Assembly (NCBI GenBank): GCA_022703585.1
Contig: JAKLDJ010000005.1
Location: 5,353 to 69,352, forward strand
Length of the DNA stretch: 64,000 nucleotides
Reading direction: 5' to 3'
From: Candidatus Omnitrophota bacterium
GTDB lineage: Bacteria; Omnitrophota; Gorgyraeia; Zapsychrales; JAKLDJ01
The position numbers and the translations under genes were made by a program. The notes under the pieces are model-generated. The model searched no databases. It saw only the letters and a program-made list of their open reading frames with translations, and was not told where the DNA came from. Every line of letters begins with the position of its first letter. Positions within the stretch are counted from its first letter, which is position 1. Shown here in pieces: positions 3,001 through 44,483 of this stretch.

Positions 3001-4197
3001 ATCCGCCCCTCGGCCTCCGCTCTGCTGTTCGGCAAATCGCGCGTCCGCAGGAATATCCCAGGAAGAATCCAATTCAAAACCTTTCGTACCGTCCTGGTAA
3101 GTAAATGTCGTCTCCGGCAATGCCGTAACCCCATCTGCACCGTACTGTCGGACTGATGTCAACAACGTCCGGCCGGTTACGCCGCTATAGCTATATCCTA
3201 AAACATAACGTCCTTGCAAAACCTCTCCGACATACGATGAGATTTGGGAGATTCTTTTGCGCGTTCCAACAAGAAAACGAGTCCGGTAAGACGACACCAA
3301 ATCATTTCTGTCTTCGAGGTCAAACCGGAGGCTGGCAAAAGGCTGCAGCCCCGTGGCGGAATTGCCGGTATAATCAATGCGCTGCGGATAAAGTTGCTGC
3401 TGGTCCTTAAGATACGTAACCGTCATATAATTACCGCTTAGATCCTCCACTCTGTCTAAACACCACTTAAAAATATGACTGCTGTCTGCCGGATCTGCCT
3501 GCCGCGAATCATCGCTCTGCCCAAAATAATATTTAACCCCTTTTTTATCGGTAATAACCCAGCCGCCGGACAATAATTCTATTTTCATAAATGCGCCTTC
3601 GATCTTTGTCCGGTAAAAACCAGACGCCGTGTCGTAAACCAATTCCTGCATTGAGCCGGCCTGCGTGAGCACAAAGGTATCCGAGGCATTATATTGGGGT
3701 GCGCCCTTTTTCGTCGAGCGCTGGATATTGCCAAGTTCCAGAATCCATCCCATGCCGAGCAAGCCGCTGGAACTCGCGGAGCTGTAAAAAAGATTGACGC
3801 TGGGCTGAATACCTGCCCGGCCCGCGGGCACAGCAATCGGGACCGACAAGGCAGCACTTCCGGTTGAAGAATCGACCTCGACACGGCTGGTTGAGGCAAA
3901 GAGAGCGCGAAAATCGATCGCCGCGTTCTGTGCTGAGGCCGGAATTACACCGGATTGCGAGCTCTCCGCAGCCTGACCTTCCTGAGAAACAGCATTATTA
4001 GAAGAAGATAGAACTTCTTCGGATGCCTGTTGCGAATCTCTGTCAGGATTAACAGTTTTTGTATGCGAATCAGGGCTTTCTTTTTGAATTAGTCCCGGGG
4101 GTTCTTCGGCGCACAGTACAGGCAGATGACAAAACGGAAAATTTAATAAGAATAACGAAAGAAATAGTCCGGATACAGAAAATATTCTTCGGCGCAT
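1..4197 (-). CDS. RHS/YD-repeat toxin-like protein (Tc-toxin TcB/TcC-like architecture), N-terminal ~1399 aa; C-terminus lies beyond window start
   Basis: Manual translation of the minus strand gives a continuous ORF from ATG at 4197 to the window edge. It has an N-terminal signal peptide (MRRRIFSVSGLFLSLFLL). A SpvB-like segment follows (PSVNLFYSSASSSGLLGMGWILELGNIQRSTKKGAPQY). Then come several FG-GAP/VCBS-like repeats (DVNADGYPD, DINGDGWVD, DLNGDGLLD, DINGDGLSD, DANADGMADF), then classic YD repeats (YDAMGRAIQTT, YDYLGRKV, YDALNRLT, YDDDAVPGSKGRLTQAEY). It is absent from the ORF track only because it lacks a stop within the window. Confidence 0.85.
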   Translation of the reverse strand, partial: MRRRIFSVSGLFLSLFLLNFPFCHLPVLCAEEPPGLIQKESPDSHTKTVNPDRDSQQASEEVLSSSNNAVSQEGQAAESSQSGVIPASAQNAAIDFRALFASTSRVEVDSSTGSAALSVPIAVPAGRAGIQPSVNLFYSSASSSGLLGMGWILELGNIQRSTKKGAPQYNASDTFVLTQAGSMQELVYDTASGFYRTKIEGAFMKIELLSGGWVITDKKGVKYYFGQSDDSRQADPADSSHIFKWCLDRVEDLSGNYMTVTYLKDQQQLYPQRIDYTGNSATGLQPFASLRFDLEDRNDLVSSYRTRFLVGTRKRISQISSYVGEVLQGRYVLGYSYSGVTGRTLLTSVRQYGADGVTALPETTFTYQDGTKGFELDSSWDIPADARFAEQQSGGRGADLGVRIADVNADGYPDILKYHEYNGGPQTRKTFLHNKDKAWVQSGDWNFPGNLAVFQNTSGEIDREWGVRVADINGDGWVDLVRYFQRDPYWGGIQVSNEVYISNKSNGWVYDPDWMMPYRQNPPQDPWYDPLPITLERGQPVYGYHEFWGSVLADVNADGYEDFIRSKEDAGYSSHYTFLNAMPGGSKGWQRNSTWDTPVSVYADFERGSTLVDLNGDGLLDIFYRKDGTAAVYINTGAGWAGGLGSSWEDTFGYGDLVDGSTQFADINGDGLSDLIIATDTQHVTLINTGHGWIRDSGWDLTGGANFKNYGTRLLDANADGMADFIIHWNGNTPQMYINKGKAPDLLVEAHNGAGAMTSIEYEPSTHYQNDFLPFPIQTVKTTTLSDGFGHSYITHYVYANGLWNTQEREFRGFGFVRVQDDEGNYSNTYFLQDDIYKGRVERQESYDMNGNLYGKVVNSWDYQEIAPGINFVFLQQKDNFIYDGDITGKRTQEQYFYEESPQNGNLTKAVSLGEVDLDTGEDVASDSRSVETEYLGNDSNWINGLPKQVTVKNHSGEMVRQSRFYYDGHQNIDDLPVKGFLTKKTDWSGSNVNPTVSFAYDEYGNLISTSDALQHVTTTDYDSDYHMFPLAVTNALNHQAVNEYYGVNGVPLDSGDGFHGLWGQLKSTTDPNNKKGRKSYDVFGRVVATVSPLDSIEYPTSTVEYQFSDDHAMVTTHQREKSGQVGTIDSVQFYDGLGRLIQTKSESATPGEFTVGGQTEYNSRGLPVKKYFPFFSTNPINSIDPINPNNPHATITYDAMGRAIQTTNSDGTYVTAIYDDWTSTTIDENGHKQKSYADAYGRLIKKEEYFGTDGRSPHYPASSYTLYATTLYAYDSEGNLTQTQDAHGNITTITYDYLGRKVSMNDPDMGFWQYGYDAAGNLTQQTDAKNQVMEFHYDALNRLTNKNDGGNFNVDYTYDDDAVPGSKGRLTQAEYSLSDKTRFSQYDDLGRELESVKT

Positions 4198-4310
4198 GAC
4201 CAAACCCTCTGTTTGAACTTTTGGGTTGAAATGGGCTTTTGTTTGCTTCGCCCAAGCGCTTCATGTGCGCTTTATCTGGGGACAGACCCCGCCATAACCA
4301 ACATAGGCTT

Positions 4311-5000
4311 AGGGACGCTCTTTTGGCGCTATTGAAGTCTGTCCCATCCTTCAGATACTGGGGACAGACTTCCGATCAACCGAAAGAGCGTCCCTGATCC
4401 CAATGAGCCCTGGAACATCCAGCGAATTTAAAAGCTCGTCATAAACACCCGATACTCTCAGTCGATAACTACTCCATTGATAATCTGATGCTGATTGAAC
4501 AATTTCGGCCCGTACGGGATTCTGCTCGATATACTCAATGCAACCCAGAAAATAGTCCTCCGAACTTATTGCCATACTTTTGAAACGTCCCTGCCATAGA
4601 TGGCCGCAGGTATGATGTCGGGCATTAAAATATAATGCGTAAGACTGATCCAATCCTTGCATAAATTTTGGTAGATCCCTGACGACACATGGTTTCACCA
4701 ATAAATGGACATGATTTGGCATCAGACAATAGCCAAATAGAAGAACTTTAAACTTCATCTTATATCTTCTCAGCAATCTCAGGTAAACCTCATAATCTTG
4801 GCTAACCTTAAATACATTTTGTTTCTGGTTACCCCTGGACATAATGTGATAGAAATTATTTTCGGGTAAAAATCGTGCAGTCCTCGGCATAACTTCTCCT
4901 CTGTATTCTTCAGGGACGCTCTTTTGGCGCTATTGAAGCCTGTCCCATCCTTCAGATACTAGGGACAGACTTCTGTTCAGCATAAAGAACGTCCCTGATA
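4311..5000 (-). mobile_element. IS200/IS605-like REP-RAYT unit: tyrosine transposase flanked by two ~88 bp near-identical structured repeats
   Basis: Near-identical direct repeats at 4311-4398 and 4912-5000 (AGGGACGCTCTTTTGGCGCTATTGAAG..CTGTCCCATCCTTCAGATACT.GGGACAGACTTC...AAGA.CGTCCCTGAT). Each contains nested palindromes (GGGACGCTCTTT/AAAGAGCGTCCC and GTCTGTCCC/GGGACAGAC). They bracket a Y1-HUH transposase gene. Confidence 0.7.
4351..4890 (-). CDS. REP-associated tyrosine transposase (RAYT) / IS200-family TnpA-like Y1 HUH transposase
   Basis: 179 aa. It has the HUH motif (NHVHLLV) and a downstream conserved Tyr region (QWSSYR), typical of the IS200/RAYT family. The 3' end of the ORF lies inside the flanking repeat. 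Confidence 0.7.
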   Translation of the reverse strand: MPRTARFLPENNFYHIMSRGNQKQNVFKVSQDYEVYLRLLRRYKMKFKVLLFGYCLMPNHVHLLVKPCVVRDLPKFMQGLDQSYALYFNARHHTCGHLWQGRFKSMAISSEDYFLGCIEYIEQNPVRAEIVQSASDYQWSSYRLRVSGVYDELLNSLDVPGLIGIRDALSVDRKSVPSI

Positions 5001-5713: not shown

Positions 5714-6067
5714 TTATAGCTTTTTAATAAGACTCAAAATCATCCGCATCTCATAAATTACAGAATCCACTAATGGTCTGCTATTAACTTCGGACAAATA
5801 CTGCCGTTTTCCTGAAAGAATAATCTGGGTTTCAAGCTCAGCGCAGGATCCCAAAGAAATATACAGAAACTGTGTATACTCCTTCGTGTGATGACGCACA
5901 AAACCCTCGGCAATATTCGACGGGATTGAAACGGCTGCCCGACGCATTTGAGTCGTTAAGATAAATAGCTCGCTTTTGGGATATTGATCAGTAAAAAAAT
6001 AGATTTTTTCAGCAATCTCTATTCCTTTTTGCCAAATTTTTAAATCTTTGTAATCCTTAACTTTCAT
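5714..6067 (-). CDS. Four-helix-bundle protein, Avd-like / 23S rRNA intervening-sequence protein family (TIGR02436/PF05635-like)
   Basis: 117 aa. It carries the family core LKIWQKGIEIAEKIY...QMRRAAVSIPSNIAEGF...FLYISLGSCAELETQII. It is flanked by inverted repeats at 5681-5713 and 6088-6117. Confidence 0.8.
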   Translation of the reverse strand: MKVKDYKDLKIWQKGIEIAEKIYFFTDQYPKSELFILTTQMRRAAVSIPSNIAEGFVRHHTKEYTQFLYISLGSCAELETQIILSGKRQYLSEVNSRPLVDSVIYEMRMILSLIKKL

Positions 6068-8811: not shown

Positions 8812-9225
8812 GTGAGACGGAACAACCATTGGCTCGGAGACACAACGGAAAAAATGGAAAAAGAACCGGGATATAAAAATCTCATCGTTTGGAAGAATAC
8901 ACGCACATTAAGAGGTCTCATTTACCAGATGTGCAAAGGGTTTCCTCAGGCAGAGATGAGACGTTCAAGCCAGATGAGAGATTCGGCGAGATCGGTCAAA
9001 CAGAATATTCAAGAAGGTTACGTAAAATCACTGCCTTCCTACATCAATCATCTCAATATTGCCATGGGTTCGCTGTCGGAATTGCGAGGCGACATCGACG
9101 ATTGTCTTGAAGATAGGTTGATTACCAAAGAAAATTTCTTGTCTATTAATGAATTGGCCGGAAAGACAGAATATCTTTTAAAACGGTTGATTCAATCATT
9201 GATTCGAAAGAGGGATAGTCGATGA
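8812..9225 (+). CDS. Four-helix-bundle protein, Avd-like / 23S rRNA IVS protein family; true start probably the internal Met near 8854
   Basis: It carries NLIVWKNTRTLRGLIYQMCKGFPQAEMRRSSQMRDSARSVKQNIQEGY...SLSELRG, matching the family pattern. The first ~14 codons of the annotated ORF lie inside the upstream inverted repeat. Confidence 0.7.
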   Translation: MRRNNHWLGDTTEKMEKEPGYKNLIVWKNTRTLRGLIYQMCKGFPQAEMRRSSQMRDSARSVKQNIQEGYVKSLPSYINHLNIAMGSLSELRGDIDDCLEDRLITKENFLSINELAGKTEYLLKRLIQSLIRKRDSR

Positions 9226-9271
9226 ATTTCAAACCCATACTAACCCCTACTATCCCATTTTACCCCCTTCT

Positions 9272-9311
9272 GCCCCCTTCTGCCCCCTTCTGCCCCCTTC
9301 TAACCCCTAAA
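9272..9311. repeat. Tandem decamer CCCCCTTCTG x4 inside the right inverted-repeat arm of the Avd cassette
   Basis: Direct reading: cccccttctgcccccttctgcccccttctgcccccttct. Confidence 0.9.
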
Positions 9312-9789: not shown

Positions 9790-9990
9790 TAAATCACTTA
9801 TATAGAAACATAAGGTTATTGTGTTTATTGGGTTCCTTGAGTTTATAGGGTTCCCGTCTAAAACATTTTACTGCGCGTAATAACTCAATGAACCCAACCC
9901 AATGAGTTCAAATAACCCAAAGAACTCAATAAACCCAATAGCCCAATAAACTCAATGGACTCAACAAACCCAACAACCATCCAAAGACCA
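9790..9990. repeat. Cluster of short dispersed repeats of the AACCCAATAAAC/TCAAT family, both orientations
   Basis: GTTTATTGGGTT ... GTTTATAGGGTT ... AACCCAACCCAATGAGTTCAAATAACCCAAAGAACTCAATAAACCCAATAGCCCAATAAACTCAATGGACTCAACAAACCCAACAACC. The same family occurs at 600-660 and 42340-42460. Confidence 0.8.
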
Positions 9991-11675
9991 TGATTCACTT
10001 AAATCCGTTTGCGATCGCAAACCTTATTATCGCTATTACATATTTTCCGCTTTTCATACTTATTGCCATCAAAGGGAAAACAAGAATAGCAAGAGTCTAT
10101 TCCCTTCACATTCTCGCGATATGCCTCTGGGGTATCGGCGCTTTCCTGGGTGGCATAAACCAGAACCAAGCAATTTCGATTAATCTATGGAAATTTGCAT
10201 ATTCCGCAGTAATCTTTATACCCATTTTCTTTCTTCACTCTGTATTGATTTTAACAAAAAGAAATTCGAGATTCTTGATTACGCTAATATATATTCAAGC
10301 CATTTACTTTCTTTGGGAAGCCCAGAGCGGTGGCATGTTTTCTTCTGTAAGACTTGTTTTTAATTCATTCTATTACGTTAATGGAAAAATCATCTATCTT
10401 TACTCATTTATCTCTTGGGTAGTTACAGTTTCATTCGCTCACCTGCTACTTATTCAATATTATAAAACTAGCTATCCGGGACAAAAAGAACAAATTGCCT
10501 CTTTAATACTCGCAATCATAGGTTTCTTAGGCGGTGCCATGAACTTCTTGCCAGGCTTCAATATAAATATCTACCCACACGGGAATCTTCTTGTGCCCAT
10601 CCATTCGATTATCGTTACCTACGCAATTCTAAAACACCAATTATTAGATATCATCGTCGTAATCAAGAAAAGTCTAATTTATTCAATTCTAATCACCTCG
10701 ATTACGGTCACTTACTTAATTTTAGTTATTTTATCAGAGAGACTACTCCAGGGAACCATCGGCTATCAATCACTCCTCGTAAGTGTTGGCATCGCTTTCT
10801 TAATCGGACTTGTATTTAGTCCCCTGCGAAATAAAATTCAATATTTCGTTGATAAATACTTCTTTAAAGGCACCCAAGCCCAAATCGCAGAGGAAAATGA
10901 ACGCCTGCGACAAGAAGTTGCCCAGGCTGAGAAGCTTAAAACCGTCGCCACCTTGGCCAGCGGCATGGCTCACGAAATAAAAAATCCGCTGACGGCGATA
11001 AAAACTTTCGTCGAATACCTGCCCGAGCGAAAAGACAACCCCGAATTTCTCGATAAATTCACACGGATCGTCGGAGCAGAAGTTGACAGGATTGACGGCC
11101 TGGTTCACCAATTGCTGGAATTTGCCAAGCCCTCTCCTCTTGCCTTAAAAGAAACTAATATCCATCAATTAATAGACGAAACCTTAAGCCTTCTTAATAA
11201 TCAACTTGTTCAGCATAAAATTGATTTAATCCGAGACTATAATGCCGACCGCGACCAGACATTAAATATTGACCCCAATCAAATACGTCAGGCGCTTTTG
11301 AATATTTTTCTAAATGCGATCGAGGCGATGAAATACGGCGGGACGCTTCGCGTGCAGACTGAAGACTACAGACTAAAGACTAAAGACCAAAGCTCGCAGA
11401 AGTCTTTGGTCTCTGGTCTTCAGTCTGGGGTCCATAAAGGCTTCTTAAAGATAACAATTTCCGACACCGGCTCCGGCATACACCCTAAGGACCTGCCTCA
11501 CGTTTTCGATCCCTTCTTCTCAAAAAAAGATCACGGCACCGGCTTAGGGTTAGCCATTACGCACGGGATTATTCAGGAGCATGGGGGGAAAATTAAAGTT
11601 GAGAGTGAGTTGGGGAAAGGAACAGAAGCTATTCTAGAGTTGCCGATAATTGGCAGTGAAGAAAATAAGGGATAG
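9990..11675 (+). CDS. Sensor histidine kinase with N-terminal 7TM sensor domain (HisKA_7TM-like), HisKA and HATPase_c
   Basis: 561 aa. Multiple TM helices carry the motif YAILKHQLLDI shared with the two other kinases. H-box MAHEIKNPLTAI; N/G boxes NIFLNAIEAM, ISDTGSGI, GTGLGL. Confidence 0.85.
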   Translation: MIHLNPFAIANLIIAITYFPLFILIAIKGKTRIARVYSLHILAICLWGIGAFLGGINQNQAISINLWKFAYSAVIFIPIFFLHSVLILTKRNSRFLITLIYIQAIYFLWEAQSGGMFSSVRLVFNSFYYVNGKIIYLYSFISWVVTVSFAHLLLIQYYKTSYPGQKEQIASLILAIIGFLGGAMNFLPGFNINIYPHGNLLVPIHSIIVTYAILKHQLLDIIVVIKKSLIYSILITSITVTYLILVILSERLLQGTIGYQSLLVSVGIAFLIGLVFSPLRNKIQYFVDKYFFKGTQAQIAEENERLRQEVAQAEKLKTVATLASGMAHEIKNPLTAIKTFVEYLPERKDNPEFLDKFTRIVGAEVDRIDGLVHQLLEFAKPSPLALKETNIHQLIDETLSLLNNQLVQHKIDLIRDYNADRDQTLNIDPNQIRQALLNIFLNAIEAMKYGGTLRVQTEDYRLKTKDQSSQKSLVSGLQSGVHKGFLKITISDTGSGIHPKDLPHVFDPFFSKKDHGTGLGLAITHGIIQEHGGKIKVESELGKGTEAILELPIIGSEENKG

Positions 11676-11760
11676 CAGGGGCTAGTAGGGGGCAGTACGG
11701 GATAGTAGGGGTTTAAGAAATCCCTTCCTAACCCCTCCTATCCCTTTCTACCCCTTCCCA
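11676..11760. repeat. Cargo-less inverted-repeat pair related to the 8762-9260 Avd-cassette ends
   Basis: GCTAGTAGGGGGCAGTACGGGATAGTAGGGGTT ... AACCCCTCCTATCCC. The arms are adjacent with no gene between them. The sequence resembles GGGTAGTACGGG..GGGTTAGTAGGGG at 8772-8816. Confidence 0.6.
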
Positions 11761-11782
11761 CCCCTTTGATAACAATACTCAC

Positions 11783-12961: not shown

Positions 12962-13022
12962 GGAATTTTACCGTTAATCAACACAGATTAACACAAATTG
13001 AAACAGATTTTCACAGATAAAA

Positions 13023-13415
13023 TCACTCGCATCGATCATAGATGCGCCGTCTGATATCTATAGATTCATTGCCGAAGTTAACCAAATAGCCTAGCTTGTA
13101 CTCTGTGCCGCTTAAGTAATAGAAAAGCTGTTTTTCAAATACTTTCGGAAGATTCAGCAAGGATTTAATTTCAACAATAATTTTGTCATCGATGACAAAA
13201 TCCGGCTCATAAACACCTACATGTTTCCCGTGAAATCGGATTTTAATTCTCGGCTTATCAACATATTTTATCCCACGTTCTTCAAAGCATATTTTGAGAG
13301 ATTCGTGATAAATTTGCTCCTTATGTGCCGGACCGAGCTCGTTATAAACATCATAAAAACACCCAACCAGCTTATACGACAATTCCTTATGCGGAAAATG
13401 CTCTACTTTTGCCAT
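13023..13415 (-). CDS. GxxExxY family protein (PD-(D/E)XK-like, TIGR04256-like)
   Basis: 130 aa. It has the GxxExxY signature YNELGPAHKEQIYHESL followed by EPDFVIDDKIIVEIK (a PD-ExK-like DxxxxEIK). It is flanked by long inverted repeats at 12973-13018 and 13420-13464. Confidence 0.65.
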   Translation of the reverse strand: MAKVEHFPHKELSYKLVGCFYDVYNELGPAHKEQIYHESLKICFEERGIKYVDKPRIKIRFHGKHVGVYEPDFVIDDKIIVEIKSLLNLPKVFEKQLFYYLSGTEYKLGYLVNFGNESIDIRRRIYDRCE

Positions 13416-13492
13416 AGTAATTATCTGCGAAAATCTGTTTAGATCTGTGAATATCTGTGTTAGTTAACGCTTCAATTTAAAACTTAACACAC

Positions 13493-13882: not shown

Positions 13883-14266
13883 TTAGCGTTTAGAGTCCAT
13901 CTTGTTCTGTAATCGCAAAATCATGGCACTCAGCATTTTCAGTATTTCTGTAAGTAAATTATCAATCCGTTGATAATCTGCAGCAACAATAAATTCCAGA
14001 CGCTTTGCTATAATCAATTGCGTCTCAAGCTCAGAGGCAGAACCTTTTGCGATATATAAAAATTGAATATATTCTTTTCGATGATTGCGCTGATAGCCTT
14101 CCGCAATATTTGAAGATATCGCAACAGCTGAACGACGCATTTGCGAAACAAGACCGTATAGTTCATCATGTGGCAATTGCCGCGTTAGCCTATACACATC
14201 TAAGACTAATTCGACCGATTTCTGCCATACAATTAAATCTTTATGCGACTGAATTTTCTCGCTCAT
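13883..14266 (-). CDS. Four-helix-bundle protein, Avd-like / 23S rRNA IVS protein family
   Basis: 127 aa. It carries LIVWQKSVELVLDVYRLTRQLPHDELYGLVSQMRRSAVAISSNIAEGYQRNHRKEYIQFLYIAKGSASELETQLIIA. It is flanked by inverted repeats at 13861-13882 and 14286-14314. Confidence 0.85.
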   Translation of the reverse strand: MSEKIQSHKDLIVWQKSVELVLDVYRLTRQLPHDELYGLVSQMRRSAVAISSNIAEGYQRNHRKEYIQFLYIAKGSASELETQLIIAKRLEFIVAADYQRIDNLLTEILKMLSAMILRLQNKMDSKR

Positions 14267-18542: not shown

Positions 18543-20234
18543 TCAGTTCTTTGGCAACTCAATGGTAAACTTCGTCCCTTCACCCAATTTACTTTCCGCC
18601 GCTATTGTTCCACCGTGTAATTTAATAATCTCCTGCGTAATACTAAGTCCTAAGCCGATACCGTCTCGTTTGGTCGTATGGAATGGCTCAAAAAGTTTCT
18701 TGAGGTTTTCGGGAGAAATGCCGCAGCCATTGTCAGCAATTATTATCCTGACATAATCTCTGCGGACTTGAGACTCAAGACCAAAGACTAAAGACTTTTG
18801 GTCTGCGCTCGTTGGTTTTTGGTCTTTAGTCTCTGGTCTCTGGTCTGTGGTCTGAACAAAAAGCTCTCCACCCTCACCCATCGCCTGGATAGCATTAAGG
18901 AACAAATTTAAGAAAACCTGCTTGAGCTGTTCTTCATCTCCCTGAATAAGACCGTCAGGATCCTGATAGTCCTTTTTAATACTGATTTTCTTAAGAGCGA
19001 AGCTGTCCTGCAGCAATGTCAGGGTTGAGTCAATCAAAGCACAGACGTTAACCGGCTTTAAATCAACCTGCCGGGGCTTGGCGAGATTTAATAGTTGATT
19101 AATGACCTTCTCTATCCGTTCCACTTCTTTGGGGATTAACGTGTTAAATTTCTGCCTGAATTCTGCATCATGGTATTTTTGCGGTAGATAATCGAGATGT
19201 GTCTTAATAGCAGTTAAAGGATTCCTGATTTCATGGACAATTGAGCTGGCCAGTTGTCCCACATAGGCGAGTTTCTCTTTGTGAAAGAGCTCCTGCTGAA
19301 GCCGACACCGTTCCTGGTCAAGGCTTTCTAGGGTGCCCTGAAAAAACCGCTTATCTAGTATGTGCTGGATCCAATCTCGCAATGGATAAAGCAATGCTGC
19401 AATAATAAACACGGCAAATAAATTAGAAAAAAACGATTGATAGCCAACCATGCCTTGAAATAATTTTCCTACGCTAACAACAAAGATGAGATAACCTGCT
19501 GTAATAATCGCTAGCAACGCCGAATAAACCAATCCTTTCTTAATAATAATGTTAATATCCATCAGCTGATGCTGCATTATTGCATAAGTTATAATCAAAG
19601 GATATACTGCAAGAAAGAAATACGGGTAGGGATACACCTCAATCCTAAACGCAGAGGGAAAAAAACTATGCGGACCAATCCATCCAATTATCGATGCAAT
19701 AATAAAGTATTTCATTTGCATCCGCCTTATTCCTGAGCTATGTCTGAAATCAACAAGCATGAGAAATAACGTGTACAAAAGTAGAATCCAGTAAAAACCT
19801 ATATAAAAAACTAAAAAGATCGGACTTTTATACTTAGGCCAATCGAAACAGTAGAATTGCCCAAAAACTAATCTTAAGTCTCCGAAAAATAGCTCCCTTT
19901 TCGTAAGAATAATCGCAAAGAAAAAGAATGCCAGAGCATAAACTAAAGCAATTAAATTCTTTTTCTTAAGATTGATGAATTTGCAAATAAAATGAAAAAA
20001 TATAGCCGGACAAAAAACTCCACCGATATATGCAAATTGCCACCAGAAGAAAGCTATTTCCTTAGATTGCGTTGTAGAAAATTTGTATGCTCCAAATCCC
20101 CAAATTGCACTGCCTATGCTCATTAAAATCCATGTTTTTGTTAGTTTTCGATCGCCACTCTTAAAAAGCATTAACACTGCCATCATTAAATTAGCAATAA
20201 AAATCAATATAGACGAAATCGCAAAGGCGTTCAT
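18543..20234 (-). CDS. Sensor histidine kinase with 7TM sensor domain; likely starts at Met 20234, overlapping the fabF stop as ATGA
   Basis: 7TM region with YAIMQHQLMDI; H-box VHEIRNPLTAI; NLFLNAIQAM, DNGCGI, GIGLGL. The ORF track start at 20258 would overlap fabF by 28 nt. The internal ATG at 20232-20234 overlaps the fabF TGA at 20231-20233. Confidence 0.8.
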   Translation of the reverse strand: MNAFAISSILIFIANLMMAVLMLFKSGDRKLTKTWILMSIGSAIWGFGAYKFSTTQSKEIAFFWWQFAYIGGVFCPAIFFHFICKFINLKKKNLIALVYALAFFFFAIILTKRELFFGDLRLVFGQFYCFDWPKYKSPIFLVFYIGFYWILLLYTLFLMLVDFRHSSGIRRMQMKYFIIASIIGWIGPHSFFPSAFRIEVYPYPYFFLAVYPLIITYAIMQHQLMDINIIIKKGLVYSALLAIITAGYLIFVVSVGKLFQGMVGYQSFFSNLFAVFIIAALLYPLRDWIQHILDKRFFQGTLESLDQERCRLQQELFHKEKLAYVGQLASSIVHEIRNPLTAIKTHLDYLPQKYHDAEFRQKFNTLIPKEVERIEKVINQLLNLAKPRQVDLKPVNVCALIDSTLTLLQDSFALKKISIKKDYQDPDGLIQGDEEQLKQVFLNLFLNAIQAMGEGGELFVQTTDQRPETKDQKPTSADQKSLVFGLESQVRRDYVRIIIADNGCGISPENLKKLFEPFHTTKRDGIGLGLSITQEIIKLHGGTIAAESKLGEGTKFTIELPKN

Positions 20235-21457
20235 TTGTAGTCCTTCAATACCAAACACGCATTATTCCCCCCAAACGCCTGGGAATTATTCAGCACCACG
20301 CTAGCTTTATGCTTGCGCCCTTTATTCGCCACGCAATCAATCTCGCACTCCGGGTCCTGCTCTTCTAAATTAATCGTCGGTGGAATCTCTTGTTTCTGAA
20401 TCGCCAAACAACAGGCAATGGCTTCCAATGCCGCTGCCGCACCCATAGTATGACCGAGCATAGATTTTATCGAGCTTGTAGGGATTTTTTGCGCACGGCT
20501 ACCAAAAACTTTCGCAATTGCCTTACATTCTACCCCATCATTTTCGGGCGTACCCGTACCATGAGCACTAATATAATCTACCGCACCAATATCCGCTCCG
20601 AGATTCTTAATCGACCGCATAATAGCACAAGCGACACCTTCAATTGAGGGAGTAGTCATATTCTGGGCGTCACAAGATAATCCATACCCTAAAACCTCGG
20701 CGTAAATATGAGCCTTGCGCTTTTGTGCACTTTCCAAAGCCTCCAACAAAAGAATACCCGCGCCTTCACCCAAGATCATGCCTTTGCGGTTTTTATCGAA
20801 AGGCTGACATTTTTCGGGAGCCATAGCAAATAAACGGCCGAATCCGGTAAAGGCAATCCTTGATAATGCGTCAACTCCACCAGCCAGCATAAAATCAGCC
20901 TTATTAGAACGAATCAAATCAAACGCCCTCCCAATCGCATAATTTCCTGCCGCGCAAGCGTTGGCAAAAATAATATTTTCTCCTTTAATATTTAACTCAT
21001 GCGATACATTTGTCGAAATAGAGTTTGCCGGATACGCTAACGCTAATATGCCCTGCACACTTATACGTTCCAACTTGGTATTATTCTCAATAATATTTTC
21101 AATTACGCGAGATTCACCCATTGTAGTACCCATGCAAATCCCTACCCTATAATCACGCAAGGTCTCAAATAGAATTTTAGAATCCTTAATCGCCAACCTA
21201 CTAGCCGCCACCGCCATCTGGGACGCACGGCCCATGCGAGCGACACGGCGCTTATTCATAAACTGGGTCGGGTCAAAATTCTTAATCTCGCCACCGTAAT
21301 GGCGGTCATACGCCGAGGTGTCAAAGGCTTCAATACGGCTGATGCCGGATTTGCCGGCCATCAAGTTTTTCCAGAAGAGCTCCCAACCGATGCCAAGTGA
21401 GGAAATTACGCCTAAGCCGGTAACTACAACACGTCTGTTGTTTAATAAATTTTTCAT
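20231..21457 (-). CDS. fabF: 3-oxoacyl-ACP synthase II (KAS II)
   Basis: 408 aa with an intact catalytic triad context: NACAAGNYAIG (Cys), SAHGTGTPENDGVE (His), GHTMGAAAALE (His). Confidence 0.85.
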   Translation of the reverse strand: MKNLLNNRRVVVTGLGVISSLGIGWELFWKNLMAGKSGISRIEAFDTSAYDRHYGGEIKNFDPTQFMNKRRVARMGRASQMAVAASRLAIKDSKILFETLRDYRVGICMGTTMGESRVIENIIENNTKLERISVQGILALAYPANSISTNVSHELNIKGENIIFANACAAGNYAIGRAFDLIRSNKADFMLAGGVDALSRIAFTGFGRLFAMAPEKCQPFDKNRKGMILGEGAGILLLEALESAQKRKAHIYAEVLGYGLSCDAQNMTTPSIEGVACAIMRSIKNLGADIGAVDYISAHGTGTPENDGVECKAIAKVFGSRAQKIPTSSIKSMLGHTMGAAAALEAIACCLAIQKQEIPPTINLEEQDPECEIDCVANKGRKHKASVVLNNSQAFGGNNACLVLKDYK

Positions 21458-21505
21458 AATATTGGGTTACGGTTAAGGTTACGATGCCGGTATCGTATAA
21501 AAAGG

Positions 21506-21925
21506 TTACGTTATTCGTCGCCCTTTCAATTTAAAATTATTCCATGCCTCAGATAGATTATATAATTGTCGTCCTGTTTTATCGTAAACATCAATAAGTT
21601 TCACACAAAGCTCTTTATTAATATACTGAGAATATATGTCCCGACAATGACTCAAGGAAACCACCAATTCATTGCACTCACCCATGGCATCATCGAGATA
21701 TTTCTGGAATCCTTGCCGTTGATGCTTTTTCGCATAACCTTCGGCAATCAATCTCGGGACAGATTTGCAACTGCGGCTCAGCTGGTCTTTTAAGTCATAT
21801 TTCTCTGATTCCGGTAATTTAGGAACTATCTGTGTCATGACGGTAATCGACAATTCATAGGCATTCCGATAAACCTCTAAATCATTAAAGCTTGCAATTG
21901 GCTTCTTTTTAAGAATCTCTTCCAT
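21506..21925 (-). CDS. Four-helix-bundle protein, Avd-like / 23S rRNA IVS protein family, inserted between fabZ and fabF
   Basis: 139 aa. It carries LEVYRNAYELSITVMTQIVPKLPESEKYDLKDQLSRSCKSVPRLIAEGYAKKHQRQGFQKYLDDAMGECNEL. It is flanked by GGGTTACGGTTAAGGTTACG (21463-21484) and CGTAACCTTAACC... (21931 onward). Confidence 0.75.
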   Translation of the reverse strand: MEEILKKKPIASFNDLEVYRNAYELSITVMTQIVPKLPESEKYDLKDQLSRSCKSVPRLIAEGYAKKHQRQGFQKYLDDAMGECNELVVSLSHCRDIYSQYINKELCVKLIDVYDKTGRQLYNLSEAWNNFKLKGRRIT

Positions 21926-21930
21926 GAAAC

Positions 21931-22109
21931 CGTAACCTTAACCTTTTTTAACGATACTTTGCAAACTTAACCCTAACCTTAACCTCGATTGGCTATTGCC
22001 TGCCGATAGGCAGGGTTATTGTCTCTTGGTGCTTGGCGATTATTCCCTGCGAAATTTTAATCGTAACCCTAACCTTTTTTAACGATACTTTGCAAACTTA
22101 ACCCTAACC
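21931..22109. repeat. Duplicated cassette end: ~50 bp direct repeat (21931-21987 and 22062-22109) with a hairpin (CCTGCC-GATA-GGCAGG) between
   Basis: CGTAACC(T/C)TAACCTTTTTTAACGATACTTTGCAAACTTAACCCTAACCTT occurs twice with a ~131 bp period. It has a telomere-like CCCTAA/TTAGGG content. Confidence 0.85.
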
Positions 22110-22121
22110 TTCTAAAACAAC

Positions 22122-22562
22122 TTATTCCCATCTCTTCACACTATAGATTATCTCGACTTCAGCAAGCTTTTGAGAGGCCGCTAAAACCGTAACATCCAAA
22201 TACCCACCCACATCCATCATTTTATTTGCCATCACCGTTATCGTTAGCTCGTCGCCTACCCCTCCCGATTTTATGAAATTCGCGGTTATCTTACTAGGAA
22301 AGACGCGCTCCGATTCACTCTTTTTGAGATCCGTTTTACTTAAATAATACAGCACCAACGCCGCCTGGGCAGCGGCTTCGATAATCAACACTTCGGGAAA
22401 ATGCCCTGGATCTCCAGCGTCCCCTAAAACACTCCACTCATTCGCCGTGATATTTTTTATTGCCGTTAATCGTTTTCCCTCTTCAAAATCGATAACCTTG
22501 TCGATCAAAAGAAACGGATATGCCTGAGGCAAGATTTTACGCAACTGGTTAGCATCAATCAT
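22122..22562 (-). CDS. fabZ: 3-hydroxyacyl-ACP dehydratase
   Basis: 146 aa hotdog fold. It has LPQAYPFLLIDKVIDFEEGKRLTAIKNIT and the GHFP catalytic His context. Confidence 0.75.
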   Translation of the reverse strand: MIDANQLRKILPQAYPFLLIDKVIDFEEGKRLTAIKNITANEWSVLGDAGDPGHFPEVLIIEAAAQAALVLYYLSKTDLKKSESERVFPSKITANFIKSGGVGDELTITVMANKMMDVGGYLDVTVLAASQKLAEVEIIYSVKRWE

Positions 22563-22712: not shown

Positions 22713-23666
22713 CTAAAAAGAGAGGTTTTCTATATCGTCGGGATTTTGAATATTGTGGACTTTTAATGCCGGATCAATCTTGCGCATCAAACCTTTCAAA
22801 ACCGTCCCCGGTCCTATTTCGATAAATTCGGTAATCCCTTCACGCGCCATAGTGCGTACCGAGTCTTCCCAGAGAACGGATGAGGTAATTTGCAGGCTCA
22901 AATTTTGGCGGATGTCTTCGGGGTTCGTTTGAGGAAGGGCATGGACGTTGGCGATGACGGGAATGCGGGAAACATGGATTGAAACATCTTTTAAAACGGC
23001 CTTAAATTTTTCCGCCGCCGGCTGCATAAGCGAGGAATGAAAAGCCCCGGCGACATCGAGAGGAATAACGCTTTTGGCTCCCTCCCCCTTAATCAGCGCA
23101 CAAGCAGCATCAACCTTTTCGGCATGGCCGGTAATGACGATTTGTTCGGGGGAGTTGAAATTGGCGATCTCGGCTCCGGTTTCAGAGCAAATTTCTCTGA
23201 GTCGAGATTTATCTAAGCCGGAGACGGATCGCCCTTTTGGAGAAAACCCGATAATAGCGGCCATTTTACCGCTTGTAATCTTTGTGGCCTCCTCCATTAG
23301 CGCTGAACGCCGGCGCACCAAATTTATGCCGTCTTCAAACGAAAGCGCCCCAGCCGCCACCAGCGCCGAATACTCGCCTAAACTTAATCCGGCCGTAAAA
23401 CGCACATTAATATTTTTAAATTTAGGATGCGCCTCAAGCGCGCGCAAGGCAGCAATGCTGGCAGTAACAATCGCGGGCTGGCAAAAAGCGGTAGAGGTTA
23501 ATTTCTCGGCGGGCCCGTTAAAAATCACGTCCAAAAGGCCCGGCCCAAAAATTTTTTCGGCCGCGTCAAACACCTCTTTGGCCTGGGAACTGGCATCATA
23601 AAATTCCTTGCCCATGCCGACTCGCTGGGTGCCTTGGCCGGGAAAGATAAGAGCGATATTTGTCAT
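22713..23666 (-). CDS. fabD: Malonyl CoA-ACP transacylase
   Basis: 317 aa; it has FPGQGTQRVGMG and the GLSLGEYSAL active-site Ser motif. Confidence 0.85.
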   Translation of the reverse strand: MTNIALIFPGQGTQRVGMGKEFYDASSQAKEVFDAAEKIFGPGLLDVIFNGPAEKLTSTAFCQPAIVTASIAALRALEAHPKFKNINVRFTAGLSLGEYSALVAAGALSFEDGINLVRRRSALMEEATKITSGKMAAIIGFSPKGRSVSGLDKSRLREICSETGAEIANFNSPEQIVITGHAEKVDAACALIKGEGAKSVIPLDVAGAFHSSLMQPAAEKFKAVLKDVSIHVSRIPVIANVHALPQTNPEDIRQNLSLQITSSVLWEDSVRTMAREGITEFIEIGPGTVLKGLMRKIDPALKVHNIQNPDDIENLSF

Positions 23667-23745
23667 ATTTGAGCTTTCAGTCGTCAGCCATCAGCCTTCA
23701 GCATCTGTCAGCTGATAGCTGACAGCGGATAGCTGACAGCTCTTC
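23667..23745. repeat. Palindromic intergenic repeat of the GCTTTCAGC/GCTGAAAGC/CAGCTGATAGCTG family
   Basis: GAGCTTTCAGTCGTCAGCCATCAGCCTTCAGCATCTGTCAGCTGATAGCTGACAGCGGATAGCTGACAGC. Confidence 0.8.
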
Positions 23746-24740
23746 TATAATAAATGCCTCGAAACTTCTTCGATGATACTGGCGTTGATTTTATGCTCAA
23801 CTTCTCTTTTGGTCGCCCGGATGGCGTTTTTGATCGCCTTGGGGGAAGAGCGGCCGTGGCTGATCATGACAATGCCGTTAACACCCAACAGAGGCGCGCC
23901 GCCGTATTCGGAGTAATCGGCATATTTTTTGACATGATTGAGGCGGGATTTCATCAACATCGCCCCCAAAAGGGCGATGGGGCTTTTTTTAATTTCTCGG
24001 CGCAGCAGCGTTGAAGCAGACTCCATAAGGCCTTCGGAAACCTTGATCATGACGTTGCCGACAAAACCGTCGCAGACAATACAATCGCATTTGCCGGAAA
24101 ATATCTCGTTGGCTTCGACGTTTCCAATAAAATTTGATACCTGTTCGGAGAGAAGTTTATGCGCTTCTTTGACAAAATCGCTCCCCTTGCTCTCTTCCTC
24201 TCCGATATTAAGAATCCCGACAGAAGGCTCCGTAAGGCCCAAGACCTTTTGCGCGTAAGTTTTTCCCATAATGGCATACTGCAGAAGATGCGCGGGTTTG
24301 GGCTCCGTATTGGCCCCAACATCGATAAGAAAACCGAATCGTTTTAAATTTGGTAAAACAAGGCCGATGCCCGGGCGCTCAACACCCGGCAATAGCCCCA
24401 AACCTATCGTCGCGGCACACACCACCGCGCCCGTATTGCCGGCGCTAACAAAAGCGTCATACGAACTATCTTTTAAAAGATTAACGCCCAGCGTAATAGA
24501 AGAATTCTTTTTCTTGCGGATACTGACAGTGGCGTGCTCATCCATCCCGATCACTTCGGGGGCATGGATGATTTCGATCGAATCGGAAGGATACTTATAC
24601 TGGCTTAATTCTTTCTTTATCTGGTCTTCAAGTCCAATCAAGACTATTTTGACACCCAGTTCTTCAATGGCCTGAATGACACCGGCAATAACTGCCTTGG
24701 GGGCGTAATCACCGCCCATGGCATCGACGACGATTCTCAC
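23745..24740 (-). CDS. plsX: Phosphate acyltransferase
   Basis: 331 aa; MRIVVDAMGGDYAPKAVIAG ... ISHGRSSPKAIKNAI are typical PlsX ends. Confidence 0.85.
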   Translation of the reverse strand: MRIVVDAMGGDYAPKAVIAGVIQAIEELGVKIVLIGLEDQIKKELSQYKYPSDSIEIIHAPEVIGMDEHATVSIRKKKNSSITLGVNLLKDSSYDAFVSAGNTGAVVCAATIGLGLLPGVERPGIGLVLPNLKRFGFLIDVGANTEPKPAHLLQYAIMGKTYAQKVLGLTEPSVGILNIGEEESKGSDFVKEAHKLLSEQVSNFIGNVEANEIFSGKCDCIVCDGFVGNVMIKVSEGLMESASTLLRREIKKSPIALLGAMLMKSRLNHVKKYADYSEYGGAPLLGVNGIVMISHGRSSPKAIKNAIRATKREVEHKINASIIEEVSRHLL

Positions 24741-24751
24741 TTTTAACTCCT

Positions 24752-24822
24752 TTTAGCTCTCAGCTTTCAGCTATCGGCTTTCAGCAGCTTTCAGCTGATA
24801 GCTGACGACTGAAAGCTGACGA
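24752..24822. repeat. Palindromic intergenic repeat of the GCTTTCAGC/GCTGAAAGC family
   Basis: AGCTCTCAGCTTTCAGCTATCGGCTTTCAGCAGCTTTCAGCTGATAGCTGACGACTGAAAGCTGACGAC. Confidence 0.8.
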
Positions 24823-25029
24823 CTACCCAGGTCTCTTCTTCTTTTCCTTCGGGGCCGCAATTTCTACAACGAGTTTACCCTTATAATGCCCGCAATAGGC
24901 GCAGACACGATGAGGAAGAATCGCTTTCTTGCACTGAGGGCAAATCGACATGGCCGGCACCGCGATCTTCCAGTGCGTGCGGCGCTTGCGCCCTCTGCTT
25001 CTTGAATGTTGCCGTTTTGGTAAAGGCAT
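24823..25029 (-). CDS. rpmF: 50S ribosomal protein L32
   Basis: 68 aa. The N-terminus is PKRQHSRSRGRKRRTHWK and the CxxC...CxxC zinc ribbon is CPQCKK...CAYCGHYKGK. Confidence 0.85.
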   Translation of the reverse strand: MPLPKRQHSRSRGRKRRTHWKIAVPAMSICPQCKKAILPHRVCAYCGHYKGKLVVEIAAPKEKKKRPG

Positions 25030-25057: not shown

Positions 25058-25471
25058 CTACTTCTTGCTGCAGTGACATTGCTCTTTGTTTAAATTCATT
25101 CCGCACTTGGGGCAAATCCCTTTACAGTCATCCTTGCACAAAACTCTTATCGGCAGGCCAACGATCAGCTCCTGGCGAATATCCTCTCCTAAGTCAATGA
25201 ATTCCGTCGTGGGCTCAAGCAAATAATCAAACTGAAAATCCTGCACGCTGTCGTGCTCAAGAGTTTCCAGGCAGCGCGCGCAAACAAACGATAGCCTCGT
25301 TTTTATTTGCGTGCGGGCGAGCACTGTATTGCCGACCCGCTCAATATCGGCCGTCACATTAAGAGGCGAAAGACTTTTAAAATCATCCTCGGTTAATCCG
25401 ATCTCGGATGGATTAATCGTCTTTTCTAATCTTAACCCCTGAGGAAGAATTTCTTTGATGAAAACCTTCAC
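25058..25471 (-). CDS. yceD: YceD/DUF177 family protein
   Basis: 137 aa with C-terminal CxxC...CxxC; it sits in the conserved yceD-rpmF-plsX-fab context. Confidence 0.7.
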   Translation of the reverse strand: MKVFIKEILPQGLRLEKTINPSEIGLTEDDFKSLSPLNVTADIERVGNTVLARTQIKTRLSFVCARCLETLEHDSVQDFQFDYLLEPTTEFIDLGEDIRQELIVGLPIRVLCKDDCKGICPKCGMNLNKEQCHCSKK

Positions 25472-33122: not shown

Positions 33123-33132
33123 TAGAAATTAA

Positions 33133-33246
33133 CCGGTAACTTTCTACTCTCCCATAGCCTCGCGGCCATAGTACCATCGACCTCGAAGGGCTTAACTTCC
33201 GTATTCGGAATGGGAACGGGTGTTGCCCCTTCGGCAATGTTACCGG
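33133..33246 (-). rRNA. rrf: 5S ribosomal RNA
   Basis: The reverse complement reads ...GGCCGCGAGGCTATGGGAGAGTAGAAAGTTACCGG, with conserved 5S motifs (CCGAATACGGAAGTTAAGCCC, GAGAGTAG). Confidence 0.8.
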
Positions 33247-33364
33247 AATAGCTTTGAATATTGGCTATTGCGCGCCCAGCTTTCGCTGGGCGCGCACTAG
33301 CACGACAATTACGTCATTGAAAGATAAACTTCAACCAAAAAAATCATAATAATGTATAAGATGA

Positions 33365-36337
<2,973 letters not shown>

Positions 36338-36489
36338 ACATTATATTGCCGTTATTAACCAATTTCTTGGCGCTTAACCGGACTGATTCTCGATTTGATT
36401 GTAGTTTGTCTACCTATGACGTAATTGTCAAAGAACATACTTGCGCGCCAGAGGCGCGCAAAGAAATGTTAAAAATTTTATTGCCTTTT

Positions 36490-36565
36490 TGGTGGAGCTG
36501 AGGAGGATCGAACTCCTGACCCCCTGCTTGCAAAGCAGGTGCTCTCCCAGCTGAGCTACAGCCCC
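36490..36565 (-). tRNA. tRNA-Ala (anticodon TGC), CCA encoded
   Basis: Reverse complement: GGGGCTGTAGCTCAGCTGGGAGAGCACCTGCTTTGCAAGCAGGGGGTCAGGAGTTCGATCCTCCTCAGCTCCACCA. Confidence 0.9.
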
Positions 36566-36568
36566 TTC

Positions 36569-36648
36569 TAGCTTTCAGTCGTCAGTCATCAGCTTTCAGC
36601 ATTACTGCTCATCTATGCTGATAGCTGAAGGCTGATGGCTGATAGCAT
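36569..36648. repeat. Palindromic GCTTTCAGC/GCTGAAAGC-family repeat inserted in the tRNA-Ala/tRNA-Ile spacer of the rRNA operon
   Basis: TAGCTTTCAGTCGTCAGTCATCAGCTTTCAGCATTACTGCTCATCTATGCTGATAGCTGAAGGCTGATGGCTGATAGC. Confidence 0.8.
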
Positions 36649-36652
36649 AAAA

Positions 36653-36728
36653 TGGTGGGCCCAAGTGGACTTGAACCACTCACCCCCGCGTTATCAGCAC
36701 GGTGCTCTGCCAGATGAGCTATGGGCCC
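36653..36728 (-). tRNA. tRNA-Ile (anticodon GAT), CCA encoded
   Basis: Reverse complement: GGGCCCATAGCTCATCTGGCAGAGCACCGTGCTGATAACGCGGGGGTGAGTGGTTCAAGTCCACTTGGGCCCACCA. Confidence 0.9.
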
Positions 36729-37037
36729 AAAGCATCTTCGGTAATACCGAAAATCGGGGCCCGTAGCAAAGCCTTTAGAAGACAGGGGTGCTTGTCAGAC
36801 CCCCAAAAAAATAAATGCCAAGTCATCATGAAAAGCTGAACTGCTCATGATCATTTCATTTGTTACGTTTGTTGCTGTTGCTGGTTTTTCTTTTCCTTTG
36901 TGAAAAGAATCCTGGTTGCGTGCGTTAGAAAAAGCAATATTGCTATCACTTATCCCTACGCTTCGCTCCGGGATTATTTTTCTTAACGCTTACGTTCGCC
37001 CTTACGGGCTCCGTAAGCGTAACGAAAAATAAAAAGA

Positions 37038-38620
<1,583 letters not shown>

Positions 38621-38797
38621 TAATGACTTGGCTTTAAAACATTTAAACAGGCAATAAAATTTTCAAAGAGCAAAAAAAATTCAGGCGGCATGCCTTGCGG
38701 CATGCCGCAGAATTTGGAGAATACGTTTTAAATGATTAAGATCGAAGTGGTTCTTGAATTACTTCTCGCTGAAGTGTTCCTTCGTTGAGGTGGCACA

Positions 38798-44396: not shown

Positions 44397-44483
44397 TGAA
44401 AGCTATCAGTCGTCAGTCTTCAGCTTTCAGCAACTATCAGCTGAAGGCTGCTGAAAGCTGACGGCTGATAGCTGAGAGCCAAG
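44393..44483. repeat. Palindromic intergenic repeat of the GCTTTCAGC/GCTGAAAGC family
   Basis: TGAAAGCTATCAGTCGTCAGTCTTCAGCTTTCAGCAACTATCAGCTGAAGGCTGCTGAAAGCTGACGGCTGATAGCTGAGAGC. Confidence 0.8.

Follow-up and report, generated by a model that had tools for sequence, protein, structure and literature searches.

In a 64-kb stretch of Candidatus Omnitrophota DNA, here called the window and the reference for all coordinates below, the gene for a FabZ-like dehydratase and that for a beta-ketoacyl-acyl carrier protein (ACP) synthase are 664 nt apart (21458-22121, dehydratase stop to synthase start), and a cassette carrying one gene of the PF05635 family lies between them. The cassette gene looks promoterless, points the same way as the operon, is closed by complementary arms and is inserted at an operon junction. 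We consider it most probable, at roughly 70%, that this is a selfish cassette resembling the intervening sequences (IVSs) of rRNA genes, bracketed by a hairpin and expressed through read-through of the operon. In the operon sense, an outer 53-nt copy of the 5' arm is followed by a spacer, an inner 53-nt copy, the open reading frame (ORF) and an imperfect inverted copy, the 3' arm:

22122-22562, minus strand: FabA/FabZ-like 3-hydroxyacyl-ACP dehydratase, 146 aa, upstream host gene (Pfam FabA, E 2.8e-10)
22059-22111, minus strand: outer (extra) 5' arm, matching the inner copy at 51/53 positions
21981-22058, minus strand: spacer of 78 nt between the 5'-arm copies, holding a GC hairpin
21999-22014: the GC hairpin, 6 bp, within the spacer
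21928-21980, minus strand: inner 5' arm (the arm proper), in sense GGTTAGGGTTAAG-TTTGCAAA-GTATCGTTAAAAAAGG-TTAAGGTTACGG, finishing 2 nt ahead of the ATG region
21506-21925, minus strand: PF05635 gene, 139 aa (Pfam and NCBIfam profiles)
21464-21510, minus strand: 3' arm, in sense ACG TAA CCTTTTTATACGATAC-CGGCAT-CGTAACCTTAACCGTAACCC
20231-21457, minus strand: beta-ketoacyl-ACP synthase II, 408 aa, downstream host gene (Pfam ketoacyl-synt domains)

Insertion at the fabZ-synthase junction

The inverted arms that bracket the ORF are imperfect and about 45 nt long, and the 3' arm takes in the stop codon of the PF05635 gene and finishes 6 nt ahead of the synthase ATG. A preliminary description of this DNA had placed a cassette with inverted repeats between fabZ and fabF, and we confirm it. 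The direct repeat of about 50 bp with a small hairpin between its copies, reported there as well, is real, with its coordinates refined to 21928-21980 and 22059-22111. The two 53-nt copies are 96% identical and their starts are spaced by 131 nt. The window holds the 40-nt core of this repeat exactly two times, while shuffles give an expectation of 0. The 13-mer GGTTAAGGTTACG, allowing up to 2 mismatches, has 9 matches against 1.1 expected, and 7 of the 9 fall inside the cassette interval; the match to the arm motif at 1339-1351 is apparently due to chance. This A-type arm is found at the fabZ-synthase locus only within the 64 kb. Both copies can pair with the single 3' arm, the RNA duplex reaching -46.1 kcal/mol for the inner 5' arm and -42.3 kcal/mol for the outer one. 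The spacer hairpin has no U-tract in the operon sense and is therefore not a terminator, and none of the fetched loci holds a sequence similar to the 78-nt spacer. In a scan for promoter-like and terminator-like sites, the counts were at background level.

We compared the junction with 80 orthologous synthase loci from other species, for which the neighbouring genes were mapped. In many of the 80, the two ORFs overlap or the fabZ-like one stops no more than a few bases from the synthase ORF. An ATGA stop/start overlap is present in 6 of the 15 junctions that were read base by base (L005, L006, L017, L020, L023 and L031; such L numbers denote our loci and contigs). The overlap of the relatives is lost between the fabZ-like gene and the synthase gene of the window. 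Because the fabZ-like stop abuts or overlaps the synthase start in many relatives from Omnitrophota and Nitrospirota, the cassette is shown to be a derived insertion relative to other species. The old junction may even still be visible at the end of the window dehydratase. Its ORF finishes with AAG AGA TGG GAA TAA, and L006 and L020 share its ...SVKR C-terminus but end in AGA TGA overlapping the next ATG, hence the stop codon of the window gene would have been mutated.

A search of genome contigs with the host proteins gave a best match of 64% identity, and the source species was not among the matches. The closest relative found (FabZ 64% identical) does not have this cassette, and a methyltransferase gene sits at its fabZ-synthase junction. 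Thus the operon is not nearly universally contiguous, as had been claimed; adjacency of fabZ and fabF is typical of the lineage. The view of the cassette as an inserted element and not ancestral synteny stands, as the genes of relatives touch or overlap and the same unit of protein gene plus arms is present at unrelated loci. The suggested alignment against relatives that lack the insert did reveal empty junctions, in other species only. Further, we found cassettes of other PF05635 subfamilies at other junctions of the same operon, all 12 of 12 being co-oriented with it. One of these, in the Nitrospirota locus L044, is an independent insertion with unrelated arms that occupies the same junction between fabZ and the beta-ketoacyl-ACP synthase gene.

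The 696-nt interval that includes the duplication is 100% identical across ENA, JGI and NCBI assemblies from different samples. An identical FabZ-like protein is present on 19 contigs, represented by four places that stand for 8, 6, 3 and 2 of them. The cassette and the same gene order are present in three of the four (17/19 contigs); the fourth, the Logan contig L004, ends just past fabZ, with its break in the outer copy of the arm. Such short repeats do break assemblies, as the end of L004 illustrates, but with three base-identical assemblies and a constant gene order we find it scarcely credible that the duplication or the whole insert is an artefact, be it an expanded repeat or a chimeric join. 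For the duplication, the preliminary description had allowed for an assembly artefact. That description had also held that an identical insert in all relatives, with no empty-site alleles, would speak against insertion. Within the species the insert indeed looks fixed, but the empty sites of other species remain.

The remaining genes of the operon are the following:

25058-25471, minus strand: yceD
24823-25029, minus strand: rpmF
23745-24740, minus strand: plsX
22713-23666, minus strand: fabD

The dehydratase scores 78.9 bits against the NCBIfam FabZ model, under the cutoff of 113, and the synthase 402 bits against NF005589, over the cutoff of 387. The yceD-rpmF gene pair is widely conserved. 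The two genes neighbour each other in the window and in the closest relative, and in the latter (L172, 1018-1541) a GxxExxY cassette with inverted arms of its own, made of GATTRCAGAGATT units, lies between them.

The cassette family and the origin of the duplicated arm

More than 2000 homologues of the 139-aa protein were found, many of them at 70-85% identity, while the flanking host proteins reach at most 64%. Homologues at 76-85% identity sit after HepT/MNT toxin-antitoxin, glycosyltransferase, MEDS-domain and Fic genes and are co-oriented with these neighbours. Around homologues at unrelated loci we find the same 5' and 3' arms as around the window copy, whose 5' arm is conserved in the cassettes of L085, L086, L087 and L094. 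The layout of the family, seen in 80 further metagenome loci, is 5' arm, ORF and 3' arm, with the cores GGTTACGAAGCCCGTATCG and CGAAACGGGCATCGTAACC being reverse complements of each other. To judge by these loci, protein gene and arms are a unit that travels together. The cassette is co-oriented with its upstream neighbour in 58 of 59 loci and with its downstream neighbour in 44 of 53.

Three other PF05635 genes are found in the window (5714-6067, 8812-9225 and 13883-14266), and all four carry flanking inverted repeats of their own. The arms of these three, as well as those of the cassettes at the synthase loci, have very different sequences and are built from imperfect units of about 5-8 nt repeated in tandem. 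In the cassette at 8812-9225, the 3' arm (9240-9308) consists of 6.9 tandem copies of a C-rich 10-nt repeat; a solitary similar C-rich repeat, CCCTTCCTAC in 4.5 copies, lies 2.4 kb away between two genes (11722-11766). The inverted-repeat score of the flanks had a median of 11.5 for 69 cassettes and 7.5 for shifted controls (p 8e-11), and a score of at least 15 was reached by 18/69 cassettes and 0/69 controls.

Pairing between the arms was examined in an alignment of 28 sequences (A2), where the helices were set by hand and the pairs counted; RNAalifold returned no consensus structure for this alignment, probably owing to indels. The arms pair in 78% of the cells, while slid partners give 25-41%. 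At 0.114, the covariation score is above the 0.086 of shuffles and was reached by 0/500 of them, and several compensatory changes are seen in the conserved arms. It should be noted that the columns 21/148, 26/143 and 33/136 are unpaired in 18-19 of the 28 cassettes. In the rows inspected, A stands opposite A at these three recurrent mismatches, which is explained by neither an RNA nor a DNA model.

The preliminary description had explained the duplicated end by a second insertion or excision event or by a target-site duplication. Two near-identical 53-nt copies on one side of the element only could suggest such a scar. The duplicated 53 nt are, nevertheless, not a target-site duplication, because the segment is the element's own 5' arm, known in conserved form at unrelated loci, and not target DNA of the fabZ side; the opposite side of the cassette matches it only as an inverted copy. 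Moreover, no flanking direct repeats or target-site duplications were found in 29 canonical cassettes of the family, and more than one 5' arm upstream of the ORF recurs in eight family loci (L097, L100, L120, L126, L130, L139, L144 and L154). We therefore consider a target-site duplication or a scar of excision and re-insertion very improbable.

Additional 5' arms, as well as pairs of 5' and 3' arms without an ORF, are common around related cassettes, where they stand in tandem with a period of about 119-131 nt, a pattern that the 131-nt period in the window fits. In L121, ORF-less units of 119 nt are arranged in tandem on both sides of a full cassette (2706-2995 and 3383-3761 of that locus; 2.4 and 3.2 copies of the 119-nt period, 94% match). 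What remains of the ORF in these units is its first 5 nt, with the start codon, and its last 17 nt, which marks them as precise internal-deletion derivatives. In L126 the 5' arm and a spacer are together repeated 3.2 times in tandem, likewise with a 119-nt period, and an additional arm unit directly downstream of the cassette is seen in L086, L092 and L094. Taken by its sequence, the duplicated end is a trait of the cassette family, and the evidence points to local tandem amplification or a decayed neighbouring ORF-less unit, rather than an excision scar, as the source of the second 5' arm.

The encoded protein and known systems

The 139-aa protein matches Pfam PF05635 (23S rRNA intervening-sequence protein) with 74.1 bits against a cutoff of 33.8, and NCBIfam TIGR02436 (four helix bundle protein) with 60.6 bits against a cutoff of 24. 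Among solved structures, the pentameric Xanthomonas protein 2GSC (PDB, E 1e-5) comes nearest to it. By these profile matches it is a member of the PF05635/TIGR02436 four-helix-bundle family. Between this protein and its homologues the non-synonymous divergence (pN) is 0.09-0.15 while the synonymous divergence (pS) is saturated at about 0.8, which shows strong purifying selection on the protein. The non-coding arms stay recognisable and are better conserved than silent sites. A search against viral contigs gave nothing.

The preliminary description had called the gene Avd-like, after the accessory variability determinant (Avd) of diversity-generating retroelements (DGRs). At the level of the superfamily this holds. 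PF05635 resembles Avd, which has no Pfam family itself, and the CDD family cd16375 holds both the Avd of BPP-1 and IVS-encoded proteins (PMC10053308); in addition, the window paralogue at 13883-14266 weakly matches the Avd model (27.7 bits, cutoff 80) and PHROG 3206 (2e-10). The cassette gene itself, on the other hand, matches neither the DGR Avd model NF033474 (cutoff 80 bits) nor any PHROGs family, that of Avd included, and PADLOC gave no match. Neither a reverse transcriptase nor an integrase domain was detected in 37 Pfam-scanned ORFs, which comprise nearly all non-nested ORFs of at least 150 aa in the window. The only repeats at the locus are the arms, with no template/variable pair among them. 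A DGR Avd identity is thus largely refuted at this locus, and we regard it as highly improbable.

The rRNA IVSs of Leptospira and Coxiella burnetii are the nearest known likeness. For Coxiella a 28-bp stem, an S23p ORF and excision by RNase III have been described, and a transposon remnant or mobile element is still listed among the untested hypotheses for the IVS (PMC4990558). Like the cassette, these 23S rRNA IVSs are elements of about 430-760 nt with terminal inverted repeats, a long stem and an internal ORF of the PF05635 family, to which the four-helix bundle of 2GSC belongs. They are co-transcribed with the host gene, as the cassette probably is, and are regarded as selfish elements of unknown mobility (PMC4990558). 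Unlike them, the cassette lies at a junction of protein-coding genes and not in helix 9, 25 or 45 of 23S rRNA; strong purifying selection acts on its protein, in contrast to the decaying ORF of Coxiella; and it has extra arm copies and ORF-less tandem derivatives. The cassette shares with IVSs the terminal inverted repeats that enclose the ORF in a long stem, but it is not located inside a helix of a 23S or 16S rRNA gene, and its position between two protein genes rules it out as an rRNA IVS proper. The window does contain a complete rRNA operon (33131-38624: 16S, two tRNAs, 23S and 5S). Its 23S gene (33370-36337; 2968 nt against 2925 in the model) has no ORF-bearing IVS, despite the four IVS-protein genes in the window.

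Repeats of the REP/REPIN type with their RAYT transposases resemble the cassette as well. The window encodes a Y1 transposase of 179 aa (4351-4890) within a 35-nt inverted repeat (4311-4996), and another REP-like hairpin is located at 4306-4400. Among NCBIfam models, this protein matches the REP-associated tyrosine transposase (RAYT) best, at 73.3 bits against a cutoff of 80. In both systems hairpin-forming inverted repeats lie between the genes of operons, a small gene is bracketed and target-site duplications are lacking, and a RAYT-like gene is at hand in the window. In contrast, the gene enclosed by the cassette encodes no transposase, the arms vary from cassette to cassette and are unlike the repeats of the RAYT-like gene, and cassette copies are tandem rather than dispersed among the sequences compared. 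The repeats at the RAYT-like gene (4311-4345 and 4962-4996) are unrelated to the cassette arms.

With integron cassettes the element shares a single small, co-oriented and promoterless ORF, imperfect palindromic bounds and possible arrays. It differs in having complementary halves on both sides of the ORF instead of one attC at the 3' side, and in lying inside ordinary operons. The scanned ORFs yielded neither an integrase nor an attI, and an integron gene cassette was rejected because the halves flank the ORF and an integrase is missing from the scanned ORFs. A classical insertion sequence or miniature inverted-repeat transposable element was rejected as well, given the lack of target-site duplications in the 29 canonical cassettes and the duplicated 53 nt being an arm. 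The heptamer tandem repeats (STRR) of cyanobacteria and Beggiatoaceae may be linked to the cassette arms. The arms of the cassette subfamilies and the ORF-less hairpins of the window are, like STRR, imperfect tandem units of about 5-10 nt, while the cassette repeats differ in forming complementary hairpin pairs, some of which enclose genes. Contiguous heptamer repeats near start codons have been described in Nostoc (10.1101/2022.06.06.494920).

No Rfam family matched; only sub-threshold matches to miRNA hairpins were obtained, on neighbouring hairpins. In the literature found, which consists of rRNA IVS papers and of works where 'four helix bundle protein' genes appear only as list entries or in passing, neither PF05635 cassettes in protein-coding operons nor ORF-less tandem derivatives were described, although with incomplete coverage this is absence of evidence only.

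Proposed processing and movement, and other hairpin elements

We propose that the cassette landed, in the lineage of this Omnitrophota species, at a junction that normally has the fabZ-like stop in contact with the synthase start or overlapping it. As it points the way the operon does, read-through from fabZ would most likely provide for its transcription. Once transcribed, the arms would pair into a stem of three parts and about 35-40 bp, enclosing the ORF between a point shortly before the ATG and the stop codon. The start region and the stop codon of the ORF sit within the innermost stem. If rRNA IVSs are a guide, RNase III should cleave this stem, and cleavage would release the cassette RNA and split the fabZ and synthase messages. 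The second 5' arm offers the single 3' arm another partner, the two pairings excluding each other.

Some observations weigh against an IVS-like cassette that acts through its RNA and spreads. The arm mismatches show no bias between G-U and A-C (43 and 50), and duplex energies of sense and antisense arms are alike (39 and 33 loci); with no RNA-strand signature, the complementarity could be selected at the DNA level. In the window copy the central 5' arm has diverged from the family consensus and the stem is interrupted. Further, no empty-site allele within the species was found among the contigs with the identical FabZ-like protein, so recent mobility is not shown, and the saturated synonymous sites between copies mean that the transfers are old.

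The strongest competing explanation, which we judge clearly less probable than the IVS-like cassette yet worth keeping in mind, is a mobile element that works at the DNA level. Here the arms would be terminal inverted repeats or single-stranded DNA hairpins for a transposase acting in trans, for example of the Y1/RAYT kind, with the gene as cargo or helper and the RNA stem as a by-product. The unbiased mismatches would agree with this, as would the lack of target-site duplications, known from IS200/IS605 and REPIN, and the ORF-less arm pairs resemble non-autonomous derivatives. A hairpin of the arms only, with the ORF swapped for GAAA, is stable with DNA parameters (-28.6 kcal/mol). The RAYT-like Y1 gene of the window, itself within an inverted repeat, and a Y1_Tnp gene 2 kb from a related cassette in L088 might supply the transposase, but no cassette arm is related to the inverted repeat around the RAYT-like gene (GGGACGCTCTTT...), the gene scores under the RAYT cutoff, each PF05635 subfamily has different arms, and a Y1 gene is present in only one distinct locus of about 170. 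Recombination or slippage would also account better than transposition for the ORF-less units, given that these stand in tandem and are not dispersed.

Alternatively, the cassette or its arms may have been co-opted as a control element inside the operon, in which competition between two 5' arms for the single 3' arm would determine the processing, stability or translation of the synthase mRNA. The two alternative pairings are indeed similar in energy, the stop/start overlap is lost with the 3' arm ending only 6 nt from the synthase ATG, the insert is apparently fixed in 17 contigs, and very stable ORF-less hairpins (z about -6) occupy the rpmF|plsX and plsX|fabD junctions. This is structural inference alone, however, and equivalent cassettes adjoin unrelated genes, a placement more in keeping with indifference to the host gene than with a dedicated role, hence we hold regulation of this kind to be unlikely. 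For the IVS-like cassette, any regulatory effect is likewise conjectural, as is its mode of movement.

Several hairpin elements of other types are found in the window. A GxxExxY / PD-(D/E)XK gene of 130 aa (13023-13415, minus strand; TIGR04256, 104.8 bits) lies within a cassette at 12964-13477 that has 57-nt inverted repeats of 10-nt tandem units, that is, the architecture of the PF05635 cassettes with a different cargo. Hairpins without an ORF, built of 7-9-nt tandem units of the CAGCTTT/CAGTCGT type, occur at 24760-24819, 23675-23741, 44402-44479 and 9814-9978. They are very stable (z -4.8 to -6.1 for those folded) and fill gene junctions, including rpmF|plsX and plsX|fabD of the fab operon. 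Two heptamer hairpins of the AGACTAA type, related to each other, at 11355-11427 (z -6.0) and 18771-18846 (z -7.6), lie in frame inside two histidine kinase ORFs, in the HATPase_c region; the same heptamer motif is also found upstream of the cassette in L088. Apart from these, a 474-aa protein with FecR and pretoxin-HINT domains is encoded at 61471-62895, possibly as part of a polymorphic toxin locus.

We speculate, with the odds rather against it, that PF05635 cassettes, GxxExxY cassettes and the short-unit ORF-less hairpins might form one undescribed class of hairpin mini-elements at operon junctions of Omnitrophota and Nitrospirota, with the protein as the element's own factor that recognises the arms of its subfamily for maintenance, processing or spread. 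If this is true, such elements would be 'IVSs at large', and the rRNA IVSs known since the 1990s would be no more than the special case of landing in rRNA.

In practical terms, such cassettes break tight operon junctions as well as contig assemblies, and PF05635 cassette genes should not be annotated as DGR Avd. The nature and spread of IVSs have been an open question since their discovery. This locus and its relatives give usable material for it: an element of the IVS kind outside rRNA, for which a comparison with empty sites is possible, with full-length and ORF-less versions side by side. The 64 kb alone hold four PF05635 genes and a GxxExxY cassette, and similar cassettes are found at other operon junctions of relatives. 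The locus, with the same type of element outside rRNA and a variant of the known IVS architecture, thus offers a way into the biology of IVS-type elements.

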